The notes beneath the pieces were generated by a model. That model was given only the letters and a program-made list of their open reading frames with translations. It was not told the origin of the DNA and did no database searches. Both the position numbers and the translations under genes were made by a program. A stretch of DNA of 64,000 bases from Candidatus Nomurabacteria bacterium (GTDB lineage: Bacteria; Patescibacteriota; Minisyncoccia; Phycocordibacterales; UBA9973), in contig CP060230.1 in assembly GCA_023898605.1 (NCBI GenBank), positions 241,662-305,661 of the forward strand, in the 5' to 3' direction. Shown one piece after another: positions 34,602 through 39,083 of the stretch; positions within the stretch are counted from its first letter, which is position 1; the number at the start of each line of letters is the position of its first letter.

Positions 34602-34808
34602 AGAGATATTTTAGCATATTGCAAAATCTCATTTTTTTGGTACTATCTCTATACATCTATGAGAAAACACTTACCGATTGAAAGTGCATAGATTCATATT
34701 CCGCGGTACCCGCCAGAATGACTTCATGTCGGGCTGGGCTCAGCTTGCTGAGCGTACCGCGAGATAAAACATATTCCGCGGTAGCTCAGCGGTAGAGCAA
34801 CCGGCTGT

Positions 34809-35426
34809 GAAATACACTTACAAATCTTATATAATCAAAACATGGTTAAAAAAGATTTGAGGAAATATTCCGACCGTCGTGAGTACCTTATAAAGAAAGT
34901 GTCAGAAAGAAGAAAGCTTCTTTTAGACAAAACGATAGAATACAAAGGTGGCAAATGTATTGTTTGTAAACACAACAAATGCAAGCGCGCACTAGTTTTT
35001 CATCACTTGAACCCAAAAGAAAAATCTTTTGGTATTTCTTCAAAAGGTATAACGAGATCGTGGTCTAGTTTACAAAAAGAATTAGACAAATGCGTTCTCT
35101 TGTGTGCAAATTGTCACGCAGAAGTACATGACGGTATAACGCAGCTTCCTATCGAAAGATAGGTTGAAAACGAGGTGAATTCGGGGAAGCCCTTCGTGGG
35201 TAATCCCGAGCCAATCCTTCGCCTAAGGCTTCGGATTGCAAAGCAGGCCCTAAATTATTAGGAAGCATGCCTTGCCGTAGCTTTGTCGAAGGCAGGTGTA
35301 GAGACTATCCTTTATGGAGTAGCCCCAATCAAAAAAATATTTTGATCGGGTCGAAGCGCCTCGCACCCTAGTCATATTGACGGGTGATGATATAGTCCAT
35401 CCCTATTAGAAATTTTAGGATAAGTG
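34809..35426 (+). mobile_element. Group I intron (~618 nt) with an HNH homing-endonuclease ORF in its 5' part and the catalytic core in its 3' part
   Basis: 5' exon ends in U and the intron ends in G (omega-G). Conserved P7 elements: R-like gtagAGACTAtcc (35317-35329) and S-like gatgATATAGTCCatcc (35387-35403) forming GACUA/UAGUC. GC-rich paired segments in an AT-rich genome. Confidence 0.8.
34842..35162 (+). CDS. HNH homing endonuclease (intron-encoded)
   Basis: Motif CIVCKHNKCKRALVFHHLNPKEK...LLCANCHAEVHDG (Cys pairs, HH, N, terminal H). Confidence 0.8.
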   Translation: MVKKDLRKYSDRREYLIKKVSERRKLLLDKTIEYKGGKCIVCKHNKCKRALVFHHLNPKEKSFGISSKGITRSWSSLQKELDKCVLLCANCHAEVHDGITQLPIER

Positions 35427-35465
35427 TAACCGGTGGGTCGCAGGTTCGATCCCTGCCCGCGGAGC

Positions 35466-35527
35466 CCTTCCTCCCTTTGGTCGTCAGGGTCTTTGACCAT
35501 GACAAATATACTGAAGGAAGGCACTGA
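35466..35527 (+). repeat. 62-bp direct repeat, copy 1, beginning 2 nt after the tRNA-Asn 3' end
   Basis: ccttcctccctttggtcgtcagggtctttgaccatgacaaatatactgaaggaaggcactga, 61/62 identical to 36878-36939. Internal inverted repeats ccttcc/ggaagg and tggtc/gacca. Confidence 0.85.
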
Positions 35528-35577: not shown

Positions 35578-35817
35578 ATGTATCATGTTTATATACTTGA
35601 ATGTAAAGATGGTTCTTTTTATGTCGGATCAACAAATAACCTAGAAAAAAGAATAAAAGAACATAATACTTCTAAAAATGGCGCCCACTATACAAAAATA
35701 CGCAGGCCAGTTATCTTAAAATATTCAGAAACATTTGAAACATTAAAAGAGGCTCGTAAAAGAGAGTCGGAAATAAAGGGCTGGAGAAGAGAAAAGAAAA
35801 TAAACTTATTTAAATAA
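35578..35817 (+). CDS. GIY-YIG nuclease domain protein (79 aa)
   Basis: YILECKDGSFYVGSTNNLEKRIKEHN matches GIY-YIG motifs (GIY..YVG, R, E, N). Confidence 0.75.
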   Translation: MYHVYILECKDGSFYVGSTNNLEKRIKEHNTSKNGAHYTKIRRPVILKYSETFETLKEARKRESEIKGWRREKKINLFK

Positions 35818-36020: not shown

Positions 36021-36086
36021 CTTCGTGAGAAAAGTCTATCTTATTCATTACTTTAGTTTACATACCTATTATGATATAATCAACGT

Positions 36087-36257
36087 ATGGCTAAGAAAAC
36101 TCCACAATCACAAAAGGTTACTTTTACAGCAAAGAAGGTCGTCAAAGAGCCGACTGTGGTTTCTTTCAATACAAAACAAGGTCGAGTAAGTTTTACTGCT
36201 CGGGTAAATGTTGAGAAGCCAGTGCAAGTCAGCTTCAAGGCAAAGAATAAAAAATGA
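36087..36257 (+). CDS. small repeat-containing protein (56 aa), putative antitoxin-like partner of the PIN protein
   Basis: Manual translation MAKKTPQSQKVTFTAKKVVKEPTVVSFNTKQGRVSFTARVNVEKPVQVSFKAKNKK. Its TGA stop overlaps the ATG of the next gene (ATGA). TATAAT 8 nt upstream. Confidence 0.45.
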   Translation: MAKKTPQSQKVTFTAKKVVKEPTVVSFNTKQGRVSFTARVNVEKPVQVSFKAKNKK

Positions 36258-36808
36258 AACTCTACCTAGATACAAACGTTATTCGAGATTACCTCGAAAA
36301 TAGAAATACAAACTCTATACAGCTATTGGAGCTTGCCAGACATAAGGGGTGGGAGTGTGTTACGTCTGCCTTTACGATGATGGAAGTTGCGGACCTTGAA
36401 CAAGATAGTATCTTCTTTCAAAAAACGGTCATACGTAAAAAATGGGATGCTGATAAGTTCTTGCGAGAACGCAGACAAAAAGAACTTACAGATAGCGATT
36501 ATCAAGACCTTGAAGAATATCTGGACGTAGTACCTGTACGTCTACCTTTTTTGACTTTCTTCAACTTGAGCGAAGACGGTTGGCAAATAGCACAATATAT
36601 TGCTTCGCACTCTGTTTTATCGGCAGTTGATACCATACACCTAGCAACGGCATACTCTGCGAAAAGCGACATTGTAGTTACAAACGATAGTGGCTTCATA
36701 AAGCACGGAAATAAGATACTGGAAAAGAGTAAGCGAGCAGGACAGATAGCAATCTGTTTGCCAGAGAAGGTTGAAGAAACGGCACAAAAACTAGGCATGA
36801 CTACCTAG
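36254..36808 (+). CDS. PIN-domain protein (VapC-like nuclease fold, 184 aa)
   Basis: LYLDTNVI...D..HLA.A..........VTND acidic-residue pattern of PIN domains. Confidence 0.6.
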   Translation: MKLYLDTNVIRDYLENRNTNSIQLLELARHKGWECVTSAFTMMEVADLEQDSIFFQKTVIRKKWDADKFLRERRQKELTDSDYQDLEEYLDVVPVRLPFLTFFNLSEDGWQIAQYIASHSVLSAVDTIHLATAYSAKSDIVVTNDSGFIKHGNKILEKSKRAGQIAICLPEKVEETAQKLGMTT

Positions 36809-36877
36809 GGGTATGCCAACAAACTTGAGGCCCTGTAACATTTTGCCATTCTATAGTTCGGAATGCGTCCAGCGAGT

Positions 36878-36939
36878 CCTTCCTCCCTTTGGTCGTCAGG
36901 ATCTTTGACCATGACAAATATACTGAAGGAAGGCACTGA
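36878..36939 (+). repeat. 62-bp direct repeat, copy 2
   Basis: See copy 1. Together they delimit a ~1.35-kb cassette carrying the GIY-YIG and small-protein/PIN genes. Confidence 0.85.
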
Positions 36940-37412: not shown

Positions 37413-37467
37413 CGAAACAATCCCGCCAGTACGGAAACCCGTCGCTGAGCGGGTTTTCTTTTTATTT

Positions 37468-37612
37468 AGTTTGAAGTGCCACTATCGGAAACACCTCAAA
37501 AATCTTAAAAACTTCCAATTCCCTTTTAATAGCATCCCAATTCAGAGTGGTGCCTGTCCGCCTCTGGCGGGAACCTGCCTTTGCCGGCATGCAGGCTTGT
37601 CTACTAGATGGA
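37468..37612 (+). repeat. Structured repeat family, copy A (~145 nt), ending in a GC-rich Y-shaped module at 37552-37595
   Basis: Aligns along its length with copies at 38149, 38936 and 39756. The Y module is gcctg-[ccgcc tct ggcgg]-aa-[cctgcc tttgcc ggcagg]-caggc. Confidence 0.8.
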
Positions 37613-37683
37613 GCTAGCTATTGACACTCAACAGAATATATTATAATGTAATACCAATTACGGTTATTTCACATTGTATTTGA

Positions 37684-38097
37684 TTGGTTTTCAGAGAAGA
37701 TTTTGTCTTTTGTGATAACCAATTAAATATAGAAGATATGAAAAGTTTAATTGATAAAATTAAAGGAACATTTATTTCGGCTCAAGAATTATTTGATACA
37801 TTCAAAGCTTTACAGCTTATGTCATCAGAAGATTTAATTGCCTTTTGGCAAACCATACAATTTACAATAGAGACCGAGGAAGCAAAATTAACATCCGATG
37901 ATAAAAAGAAAATCGGATACATTGAAAAAGTAATTGTGGAAAATATGGTAAATCTTTCCAAAGACGAACCTTCTCTTAAAGAAAAGTTTTATCAGATGGT
38001 TCTTGTAAGGGACAAGAAAAGAGACCCAATAGGAATGAGTAAATTGTTTGGAGCTAATTCAGACTACGAAAGTTCCTTAAGTGAAAAATTAAAATAA
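37684..38097 (+). CDS. hypothetical protein (possibly starting at MKSLIDK, 37738)
   Basis: ORF bounded by repeat A upstream and terminator plus repeat B downstream. Confidence 0.45.
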   Translation: MVFREDFVFCDNQLNIEDMKSLIDKIKGTFISAQELFDTFKALQLMSSEDLIAFWQTIQFTIETEEAKLTSDDKKKIGYIEKVIVENMVNLSKDEPSLKEKFYQMVLVRDKKRDPIGMSKLFGANSDYESSLSEKLK

Positions 38098-38148
38098 ATC
38101 CACTTTGTGGTAGAAACTTCTACCGCTTGGTGGATTTTTCTTTTTATT

Positions 38149-38255
38149 AGTTCTGAAGTGCCACCATCGGAAACATCTCAAAAATCTTAGAAAACTCTAA
38201 CTCTTTTTAATAGCAACCCGATTCAGGGTTCTGAACTCGTCCACTAGAGGAAGCC
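38149..38255 (+). repeat. Structured repeat family, copy B (5' two-thirds only; the GC-rich Y module is replaced by ggttctgaactcgtccactagagg)
   Basis: Over 80% identity to copy A across the first ~85 nt. Confidence 0.7.
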
Positions 38256-38354
38256 ATTAAAATCACTTTGTAAAACGAGGTGATTTTTTGATACCCAAAT
38301 AGGGTTCAGAACTTTTATAATAAAAAGAACACTTCTTGCGAAATGTTCTTATTA

Positions 38355-38900
38355 CTAATTTTTCAAATCACTACTAAGGTTGCTAGCAAAACGCCTTATG
38401 GCAGGTATTACATCGTGTCCAGTTAGATGTCGTAGTAGGTATAAAAAGTTTTGCGTATCTTTGTTGTTATCACAAAAACTTTCCAAACCATTTACAAGAG
38501 CATCTACTTTACGCGAAGTATCCCAAGCAGATAAGTTTACTTCTTTTATATCAACCGTAAGTGAAGGCATTAAAGTTTCAATACTCGCTATGTCTTCATA
38601 CTTTCTAATGAGCCTCTCAACACTGTTAAGATTTTCATCAGTGGCGGGCATTTTCAAAGATTGTAGATACATCCAACAAGTAATTTGCCAAAAAAGTTCT
38701 TTAATAAAGTTCTCAGAGTATTCGTACTCTTCGGGTGCTTCAACCGAACTTTTATAGAAAAGGTTTTCTTGTTTTCGTAATGCAAACAACCATTTTACAA
38801 ACTGTTCTGTAGATGTAACTACTGAAGTGTCTGTACCAAGTAGTAATTTTCGTATTTTTTCTCTCATAGAACAATGATTTATTAAAACATAATATATCAT
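38355..38900 (-). CDS. hypothetical protein (possible start at MREKIRK, 38867)
   Basis: ORF between repeat copies B and C. Confidence 0.45.
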   Translation of the reverse strand: MIYYVLINHCSMREKIRKLLLGTDTSVVTSTEQFVKWLFALRKQENLFYKSSVEAPEEYEYSENFIKELFWQITCWMYLQSLKMPATDENLNSVERLIRKYEDIASIETLMPSLTVDIKEVNLSAWDTSRKVDALVNGLESFCDNNKDTQNFLYLLRHLTGHDVIPAIRRFASNLSSDLKN

Positions 38901-38935
38901 AAATTATGTATTTGTAAATAGGTATATAAGTTGCG

Positions 38936-39083
38936 AGTTCTGAAGTGTTACCACCGGAACCACCTCAAAAATCTTAAAAATTCCAATTCCCTTTTAATTG
39001 CAGTCCAATTCAGAGTGGCGCCTGTCCGCCTCTGGCGGGAACCTGCCTTTGCCGGCAGGCAGGCTTGTACAACAGAGGGAGCC
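38936..39083 (+). repeat. Structured repeat family, copy C (full length; Y module at 39020-39064)
   Basis: Near-identical to copy A, including the Y module and the downstream gtacaacagagggag tail. Confidence 0.8.

Follow-up and report, generated by a model that had tools for sequence, protein, structure and literature searches.

An IA-like group I intron with an HNH endonuclease gene in its P1 loop interrupts a tRNA-Asn(GUU) gene of a Candidatus Nomurabacteria bacterium

In a 64-kb stretch of a Candidatus Nomurabacteria genome (hereafter the window, meaning all 64,000 nucleotides that were analyzed), the two halves of a tRNA gene lie on either side of 618 nt that contain a small ORF. This arrangement raises the questions of which tRNA is encoded, where the intervening sequence begins and ends, how it would be removed from the transcript, and what the encoded protein does. 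The analysis described below makes it highly probable that a tRNA-Asn(GUU) gene contains, at position 35/36, a self-splicing IA-type intron of 618 nt whose P1 loop carries the gene of an HNH endonuclease, most likely a homing enzyme.

Results

The split gene and its predicted product

The exons and the intron are located as follows.

34775 to 34808, plus strand: tRNA-Asn 5′ exon, TCCGCGGTAGCTCAGCGGTAGAGCAACCGGCTGT
34809 to 35426, plus strand: group I intron, 618 nt, IA-like, at position 35/36, with ωG at 35426 (RF00028, covariation, and homology)
35427 to 35464, plus strand: tRNA-Asn 3′ exon, TAACCGGTGGGTCGCAGGTTCGATCCCTGCCCGCGGAG

Both exons were read directly from the sequence. The 5′ exon comprises tRNA nucleotides 1–35, that is, the 5′ strand of the acceptor stem (TCCGCGG), the D arm (GCTC-AGCGGTA-GAGC), the 5′ strand of the anticodon stem (ACCGG), and C32, U33, G34, and U35 of the anticodon loop (CTGT). 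The 3′ exon supplies U36, A37, and A38 (TAA), the 3′ strand of the anticodon stem (CCGGT), the variable loop (GGGTC), the T arm (GCAGG-TTCGATC-CCTGC), the 3′ strand of the acceptor stem (CCGCGGA), and the discriminator base G73. When joined, the exons fold into a cloverleaf of 72 nt, in which the acceptor, D, anticodon, and T stems are paired throughout. It has an anticodon loop CUGUUAA, a U1–A72 pair, and G73, and ARAGORN identifies it as tRNA-Asn(gtt). This perfect cloverleaf bears out the preliminary description of the locus, in which a tRNA-Asn(GUU) gene had been proposed to be split in the anticodon loop, with the 5′ half ending at 34808 and the 3′ half starting at 35427. CCA is not encoded, as G73 is directly followed by CCCTTCC in the window. 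The predicted spliced tRNA is like an experimentally sequenced tRNA-Asn from Patescibacteria (GCA_016700035.1) at 59 of 72 positions.

In default mode, ARAGORN reported nothing at the split locus, and there is no tRNA-Asn among the seven tRNAs that it called in the 64-kb window. Searches of the window for a second copy of the 3′ half and for an uninterrupted anticodon arm likewise found none. An uninterrupted tRNA-Asn elsewhere, together with signs that the split locus is a decayed pseudogene, had been named beforehand as evidence against the proposal; no such intact gene lies within the 64-kb window, and the claim that the only visible tRNA-Asn depends on splicing holds for this stretch.

Position of the splice junction

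The same nucleotides can also be read as a tRNA-Thr(UGU) gene with an intron at position 33/34, in which case the 5′ exon ends at 34806 and the intron at G35424. ARAGORN in intron mode makes exactly this call, Thr(tgt) i(34,618), with both boundaries 2 nt upstream of those in the Asn reading. In the Thr reading, too, U precedes the intron and G is its last nucleotide. Homologous loci, however, distinguish between the two. The Asn boundaries (CUGU before the intron, G at its end, and UAA after it) fit 69 of 69 loci, whereas the Thr boundaries fit 37 of 69, namely those in which the intron starts with GU and ends with GUG. Moreover, the invariant guide sequence GCAGCU sets the G of the wobble pair opposite U35, not U33, and the U1–A72 pair and G73 are typical for bacterial tRNA-Asn rather than tRNA-Thr. 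A published homologue has the same 2-nt ambiguity, and sequencing of its product after in vitro splicing placed the junction at 35/36 (PMC13011429). According to Nakagawa et al., ARAGORN and tFind make the same Thr miscall (PMC13011429). We regard the tRNA-Thr reading as extremely improbable; the data support a position of the window intron between positions 35 and 36 of tRNA-Asn(GUU).

Identification and fold of the intron

A local scan of the region with Rfam model RF00028 yielded a match at 35094–35419 with 62.1 bits, compared with a gathering score of 50 (E = 3.7e-15). When all 64 kb were scanned with default gathering settings, RF00028 was not reported. Given the local score, this miss is a false negative, most likely caused by speed filters. 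A routine pipeline would thus have wrongly indicated that there is no covariance-model match, a result that the preliminary description, which had suggested the Rfam scan, took as evidence against a group I intron. The intron is preceded by U34808 and ends with G35426, and the U at −1 and the ωG at the 3′ end are both found in 69 of 69 homologous loci.

Helices were assigned as listed here.

34803 to 34809, plus strand: P1 5′ strand, exon GGCUGU plus intron G+1, with U35 (34808) as the splice-site U; pairs with 35140–35146
35140 to 35146, plus strand: internal guide sequence and P1 3′ strand, cGCAGCU; GCAGC invariant in 39 of 39 homologues
35148 to 35163, plus strand: P2 hairpin CCUAUC-GAAA-GAUAGG, which includes the ORF stop codon (35160–35162); compensatory changes in 5 of 6 pairs, 97% paired
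35171 to 35177, plus strand: P3 5′ strand CGAGGUG, partner 35357–35363; compensatory changes in 3 of 7 pairs, 96% paired
35181 to 35209, plus strand: P4 (35181–86/35204–09) around P5 (35189–92/35198–201); 7 pairs changed on both sides
35210 to 35297, plus strand: P6 (GCC 35210–12/GGU 35295–97) and P6a (CCUUCG 35216–21/CGAAGG 35287–92); P6a covaries in 6 of 6 pairs
35303 to 35307, plus strand: P7 5′ strand GACUA, guanosine-binding helix, partner 35393–35397; invariant in 39 of 39
35308 to 35352, plus strand: P7.1 (35308–10/35316–18) and the P7.2 hairpin (about 35322–35352), the latter assigned by eye in the window
35357 to 35363, plus strand: P3 3′ strand CGCCUCG (covariation count)
35364 to 35386, plus strand: P8 CACCC/GGGUG with an inner GUCA/UGAC stem; compensatory changes in 4 of 5 pairs
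35393 to 35397, plus strand: P7 3′ strand UAGUC, invariant in the alignment
35400 to 35420, plus strand: P9 hairpin; weaker alignment, 61% paired, double changes in 4 of 5 pairs

This structure was written from the window sequence, and its pairs were then counted on an alignment of 39 ribozyme cores, drawn from the best 80 of the loci at which at least 581 species-representative genomes encode relatives of the ORF. Standard pairs occupied 90.5% of the cells of the core helices, compared with 33–44% when the 3′ partners were slid by one to three columns, and in 30 of 50 pairs both partners had changed. Covariation was scored at 0.45, compared with 0.06–0.12 for the slid versions, and none of 500 shuffles reached 0.45. 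Covariation was seen in P2, P3, P4, P5, P6/P6a, and P8, whereas P7 (GACUA/UAGUC) was invariant. The 618-nt group I intron of the preliminary description, with a U before it and a G at its end, thus stands on both the RF00028 score and covariation in 39 homologues, and the conserved P7 elements that had been noticed there are indeed present and pair with each other.

Most homologues have two hairpins between P7 and the 3′ strand of P3. These P7.1/P7.2 hairpins are a hallmark of subgroup IA, and the window intron is IA-like. The P6/P6a region carries a 65-nt peripheral extension, which recurs in two homologous loci (L046 and L079).

Rfam places P1 and P2 at 35094–35128, inside the ORF. We rejected this placing in favor of P1 at 34803–34809/35140–35146 because the splice-site U35 (U34808) forms a U·G wobble pair with G35141 there, because GCAGC is invariant, and because ORF-less homologues have a P1 loop of only 5–8 nt between CUGU and GCAGC. 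A second candidate guide, GCAGAA at 35119–35124, allows 4 base pairs only. For P10 (the 3′ exon paired with sequence 5′ of the guide), neither convincing pairing nor covariation was found. With the ORF inside it, the P1 loop spans approximately 330 nt, a length that could slow folding.

The HNH ORF in the P1 loop

Two further features lie within the P1 loop.

34830 to 34835, plus strand: TATAAT, a hexamer resembling a −10 element, 6 nt upstream of the HNH ATG (consensus scan, 10 of 12 matches)
34842 to 35162, plus strand: HNH endonuclease ORF, 106 aa (conserved residues and PF01844 matches of homologues)

As had been described, an intact ORF for a 106-aa HNH protein occupies the 5′ portion of the intron. 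The protein has the motif CxxC...HH...N...CxxCH, and 30 sequences without exception keep its catalytic and zinc-binding residues (C39, C42, H54, H55, C88, N90, C91, and H92). The profile check suggested earlier gave a divided result: the window protein itself scores 16.7 bits against PF01844, which is under the gathering cutoff of 21.4, whereas 26 of 30 close homologues match the profile at E ≤ 0.01 (best E = 3.2e-6). An AlphaFold2 model (pLDDT 87.6) has strand–strand–helix elements at residues 51–55, 84–88, and 89–96. Foldseek searches of the PDB returned HNH nucleases at the top (Gme HNH, Cap5, the Cas9 HNH domain, and T4 endonuclease VII) at non-significant scores (best E = 0.15), and a sequence profile search of the PDB gave weak matches to HNH domains only, in a group II intron maturase and in McrA. 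A Candidatus Nomurabacteria MAG (locus tag H6791_01550) has an identical protein, which its annotation lists as hypothetical.

The 3′ end of the ORF doubles as ribozyme sequence. Its last eight codons (ACG CAG CTT CCT ATC GAA AGA TAG) overlap the guide sequence (35140–35146) and P2 (35148–35163), and this overlap accounts for the conserved C-terminal TQLP of the intron-encoded proteins. P2 covaries freely despite the overlap. The TATAAT hexamer upstream may act as an internal promoter for a near-leaderless HNH mRNA, a possibility suggested by its position; the arrangement TATAAT-N6-ATGG recurs at 36074–36098.

One could argue that the intron splices while the HNH protein no longer promotes homing, and that the protein is retained as a splicing helper or solely for the guide and P2 sequences at the 3′ end of its gene. 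The ORF does overlap essential parts of the ribozyme (35139–35162), the Pfam score of the window protein is weak, and a single copy in a haploid genome leaves no intron-less target. A spacer role, however, would not need the metal-binding and catalytic residues that are invariant over 30 diverse homologues, and ORF-less homologues splice without protein (PMC13011429). The distribution of the family, which occupies the same tRNA site in many species genomes and also stands free by phage tRNA genes (see below), fits active mobility. We therefore consider loss of homing unlikely and favor a functional homing endonuclease.

Spread of the HNH family

The HNH family is encoded in at least 581 species genomes, nearly all of them Patescibacteria among the matches listed. 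We inspected the best 80 of these at least 581 loci. In 64, the ORF lies inside a split tRNA-Asn; in seven, it is free-standing by the 5′ end of a tRNA-Asn; the other nine were undecided, the ARAGORN call being absent or wrong and some loci lying at a contig edge. Two of the free-standing genes (L057 and L069) are found beside a tRNA-Asn without an intron, and five (L023, L027, L062, L073, and L039) beside a tRNA-Asn with an ORF-less intron. The Gln-Leu (QL) that the guide core CAGCU encodes is absent from the C-terminal end in 7 of 7 free-standing homologues.

Among phages, 460 records match the family. Phage homologues of the window protein are 47–59% identical to it and are located between tRNA genes; in 9 of 10 phage loci inspected, the HNH gene lies within a tRNA gene cluster. 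It directly adjoins tRNA-Asn in six of these ten (Bastille, Yen9-04, S-H38, CR3, Lak-A1, and LAh_6) and abuts tRNA-Ile or tRNA-Tyr in others. In phage Bastille, a tRNA-Asn 3′ half that begins at the anticodon loop directly follows the HNH ORF, and a comparable 3′ tRNA-Asn fragment is present at L069.

This pattern would fit an enzyme that recognizes tRNA-Asn DNA around the anticodon loop, and it would also fit the invasion of an intron by a free-standing nuclease, for which a route is known. Bonocora and Shub reportedly described a pathway of this kind as “collaborative homing.” We tentatively suggest, with somewhat more reserve than conviction, that the intron-encoded HNH protein belongs to a widespread homing family that targets tRNA genes, with its closest members acting on tRNA-Asn, and that this family occurs at every stage of the Bonocora–Shub pathway: beside an intron-less tRNA-Asn, beside an ORF-less intron, and inside the P1 loop with the C-terminal codons serving as guide and P2. 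If so, HNH-bearing tRNA introns in Patescibacteria would be far commoner than the four reported from complete genomes, and the tRNA-Asn copies broken at the anticodon loop (L069 and Bastille), as well as the partial copy at 34695–34766 in the window, would be scars of nuclease events.

Local context of the locus

Two independent metagenome contigs (L001 and L002) share the exons, the intron, and the ORF with the window at 100% identity. Over 34667–35527, all differences between these contigs and the window are confined to an upstream hairpin element at 34695–34766, the first 14 nt of which exactly repeat the leader and the start of the tRNA. A low-threshold Rfam scan of this element gave no matches. 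Downstream, the window contains a 1,412-bp insertion that is absent from both contigs. Direct repeats of 66 bp flank it, and it contains genes for GIY-YIG and PIN proteins. The insertion is unrelated to the intron. The GIY-YIG ORF (35578–35817) was considered as a second intron-associated nuclease and rejected, as it lies inside this insertion, which close relatives lack. The 66-nt repeat was also considered as a structured RNA and rejected, its fold being no better than that of shuffled sequence (z = −0.85).

These data bear on the possibility of a relic, decaying or inactive, whose intron has ceased to splice while an intact tRNA-Asn gene at another site in the genome supplies the tRNA. The tRNA-Asn search covered 64 kb of a genome of approximately 619 kb, and the incomplete duplicate of the 5′ end of the tRNA just upstream (34695–34766) implies that the locus has been rearranged, both of which would be compatible with a relic. 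Against this, all core helices are intact and in line with the covariation of the family, the ORF is complete with every conserved residue kept, and the exons, intron, and ORF have stayed identical in two other assemblies while the flanking element changed. A relic is thus very unlikely. We retain the reading of an active intron; by homology to a relative tested in vitro, self-splicing of the window copy is very likely.

Discussion

Proposed mechanism

The structural data suggest the following course of events. In the folded pre-tRNA, the exon segment GGCUGU (34803–34808) would pair with the guide GCAGCU (35141–35146), which places U35 in the U·G wobble pair. Free guanosine bound in P7 would then attack after U35. 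Next, ωG (35426) would take the site of the free guanosine, and exon ligation would create the loop CUGUUAA. The tRNA would be completed by RNase P and the CCA-adding enzyme. The most likely substrate of the HNH enzyme, in turn, is the DNA of an intron-less tRNA-Asn gene, cut close to the anticodon loop, and repair of the break would copy the intron in (homing). A target in tRNA-Asn DNA fits the location of HNH homologues beside tRNA-Asn in phages and in other Patescibacteria.

Implications for annotation and decoding

The split tRNA-Asn is missed by ARAGORN in default mode and by the whole-window Rfam scan, and intron-aware ARAGORN labels it as tRNA-Thr. Genomes in which such a gene is missed or mislabeled seem to have no tRNA-Asn, which distorts completeness estimates. 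If the gene is the sole tRNA-Asn gene of the genome, as checked over the 64-kb window, Asn decoding in a minimal genome would hang on a ribozyme. Both messages, on annotation and on ribozyme dependence, are already those of Nakagawa et al. 2026 (PMC13011429). The present analysis may extend that paper in two respects: how widespread the HNH-bearing form is, considering the at least 581 species genomes that encode the family, and its kinship with free-standing nucleases by tRNA-Asn in phages and other Patescibacteria.

Comparison with known systems

Williams 2020 (bioRxiv, 10.1101/2020.01.27.920355) raised the number of interrupted bacterial tRNA types from 4 to 21. According to Nakagawa et al., “Asn.4Ug” is among the classes of that work (10.1101/2020.01.27.920355; PMC13011429). 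Nakagawa et al. (mSystems 2026, PMC13011429; preprint 10.1101/2025.07.03.662931) found 22 tRNA group I introns in 95 complete Patescibacteria genomes. Fifteen of these 22 are located in tRNA-Asn(GUU) at 35/36, the commonest tRNA intron site in Patescibacteria, nearly all of these introns belong to subgroup IA (25 of 28 introns at 35/36 were classed as IA), and four introns carry HNH (PF01844) genes (PMC13011429). The view in the preliminary description that a tRNA-Asn host with an HNH ORF is unusual is outdated in light of these numbers. The tRNA-Asn intron of GCA_016700035.1 was spliced precisely in vitro, and mutation of its ωG to C blocked exon ligation (PMC13011429). Among the Table S3 entries of this study that were searched, none matched the exact sequence of the window (PMC13011429).

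The window intron shares with this class the host tRNA, the insertion site, the phylum, an IA-type core with P7.1/P7.2, the guide ACGCAGCUUCC followed by P2, and the ARAGORN miscall as Thr(UGU). In 228 aligned columns, its ribozyme core is 79% identical to that of GCA_016699245.1 (ORF-less, Paceibacteria) and 70% identical to that of GCA_016700035.1, the intron spliced in vitro. The latter is ORF-less and comes from Saccharimonadia, whereas the window intron has an ORF. Based on this homology and the published in vitro splicing, the window locus adds one more member to a class that has been described and validated by experiment. An HNH ORF in the P1 loop is common to the window and GCA_023898525.1, GCA_016699425.1, GCA_000503835.1, and GCA_001029735.1. 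IA introns with HNH genes at position 35/36 of tRNA-Asn in Patescibacteria, and the splicing of an ORF-less homologue, are thus already known; what goes beyond the published account is that at least 581 species genomes encode the HNH family and that free-standing kin occur by tRNA-Asn, in some Patescibacteria and in phage tRNA clusters. At 618 nt, the window intron is slightly longer than the four HNH-bearing introns of Nakagawa et al. (568–606 nt), mainly because of the P6 extension.

The classical bacterial tRNA introns are those of cyanobacterial tRNA-Leu(UAA), tRNA-fMet, Azoarcus tRNA-Ile, and Agrobacterium tRNA-Arg. They resemble the window intron in self-splicing, which is predicted for the latter, in their location in the anticodon loop, and in having a U at −1 and an ωG at the 3′ end. 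They differ in that they belong to subgroup IC3, are inserted at 33/34, 34/35, or 36/37, and are usually ORF-less, whereas the window intron is IA-like, sits at 35/36, and contains an HNH gene.

Phage IA introns with homing endonuclease genes, such as T4 td with I-TevI and SPO1 with I-HmuI, have the same IA architecture, an endonuclease ORF in a peripheral loop, and related free-standing endonucleases beside the target gene. Their hosts are phage protein-coding genes, whereas the window intron resides in a chromosomal tRNA gene and its P1-loop ORF overlaps the guide.

The HNH enzymes F-Tfl of phage T5 are free-standing homing endonucleases in a phage tRNA gene cluster. Another is SegB of phage T4 (PMC2330249), which is of the GIY-YIG family, whereas the window protein is of the HNH type. 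Such phage enzymes are encoded between tRNA genes, like the phage homologues of the window HNH protein, and outside introns, unlike the window HNH protein itself.

Sequence elements flanking tRNA-Asn

The split tRNA-Asn(GUU) gene is directly preceded by a structured element (34695–34766), which begins with 14 nt that exactly duplicate the leader and tRNA nucleotides 1–9 (CATATTCCGCGGTA). This copy is followed by a CCCGCC...GGGCTGG hairpin and then by tRNA nucleotides 10–16 and the inverted complement of nucleotides 10–16. The predicted fold has a free energy of −34.8 kcal/mol (z = −4.0). Comparison of 34667–35527 with two independent metagenome contigs (L001 and L002; 99.5% identical) showed that all four differences are located inside the element. 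Three of these are substitutions, which leave the closing stem paired or make it stronger. Similar copies of the tRNA 5′ end were found in at least 10 of 81 loci, one of which (L079) has two.

The region 3′ of tRNA-Asn contains two insertions.

First insertion (1,412-bp segment)
35462–35527 and 36874–36939: 66-bp direct repeats, 97% identical
35578–35817: GIY-YIG protein gene
36254–36808: PIN-domain protein gene

Second insertion (approximately 1.47 kb relative to L001)
37467–39083: insertion with its bordering repeats
37467–37614 and 38936–39083: bordering direct repeat of approximately 148 nt
37684–38097, + strand: ORF
38355–38900, − strand: ORF

The 66-bp repeats enclose the first segment, which also holds small ORFs and is lacking in the close relatives L001 and L002. 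The first repeat starts with the last 3 nt of tRNA-Asn (35462), and the segment looks like a cassette inserted beside this gene. Neither ORF in the second insertion gave a Pfam match.

Putative promoter motif of the HNH ORF

The motif ATATAATCAA..ATGG is present twice in the window, at 34829–34853, preceding the ORF for the intron-encoded HNH endonuclease, and at 36074–36098, preceding a small ORF at 36087. Both copies have a −10-like TATAAT 6 nt ahead of the ATG start codon. The repeated TATAAT-N6-ATG arrangement suggests that this bacterium may use leaderless or near-leaderless transcripts.

Detection and labeling of the introns

The group I intron was missed when the whole window (1–64000) was scanned with Rfam at the default gathering threshold; in a search limited to 1 kb, it scored 62.1 bits, which is above the cutoff. 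Default filters in whole-genome surveys may lead to undercounting of these introns.

The Patescibacteria-type tRNA-Asn intron with HNH also occurs on some contigs labeled as Burkholderiales, Gammaproteobacteria, Simkania, or Blastocatellia MAGs (L005, L024, L038, L043, L056, L060, and L071), which may be mis-binned or mislabeled.

HNH homologs adjoining tRNA-Asn

Seven loci carry a free-standing member of the same HNH family immediately adjoining tRNA-Asn (L027, L039, L062, and the four listed here).

Free-standing HNH gene with tRNA-Asn
L057: 1480–1898
L069: 1489–1960
L023: 1387–2139
L073: 1453–2146

The adjoining tRNA-Asn is intact and intronless in L057 and L069, and it has an ORF-less intron of 216–317 nt at position 35/36 in L023, L027, L062, and L073. 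In L039, the ORF-less intron is 344 nt long, and the tRNA-Asn is on the strand opposite to HNH. The HNH stop codon of L062 falls within the first 10 nt of tRNA-Asn. In L069, fragments of the tRNA-Asn 5′ and 3′ parts, broken at the anticodon loop, lie on either side of the HNH gene and its intact tRNA.

The HNH family matched 460 phage records in all. In six phages, namely Bacillus phage Bastille (L083), Yersinia phage fHe-Yen9-04 (L084), Synechococcus phage S-H38 (L085), Cronobacter phage CR3 (L087), Prevotella phage Lak-A1 (L090), and Aeromonas phage LAh_6 (L091), the homolog (39–59% identity) lies in a tRNA gene cluster and directly adjoins tRNA-Asn; in two other phages (L086 and L089), it adjoins tRNA-Ile or tRNA-Tyr instead. 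In Bastille, a tRNA-Asn 3′ half beginning with GGCTGTTAACC directly follows the HNH stop codon.
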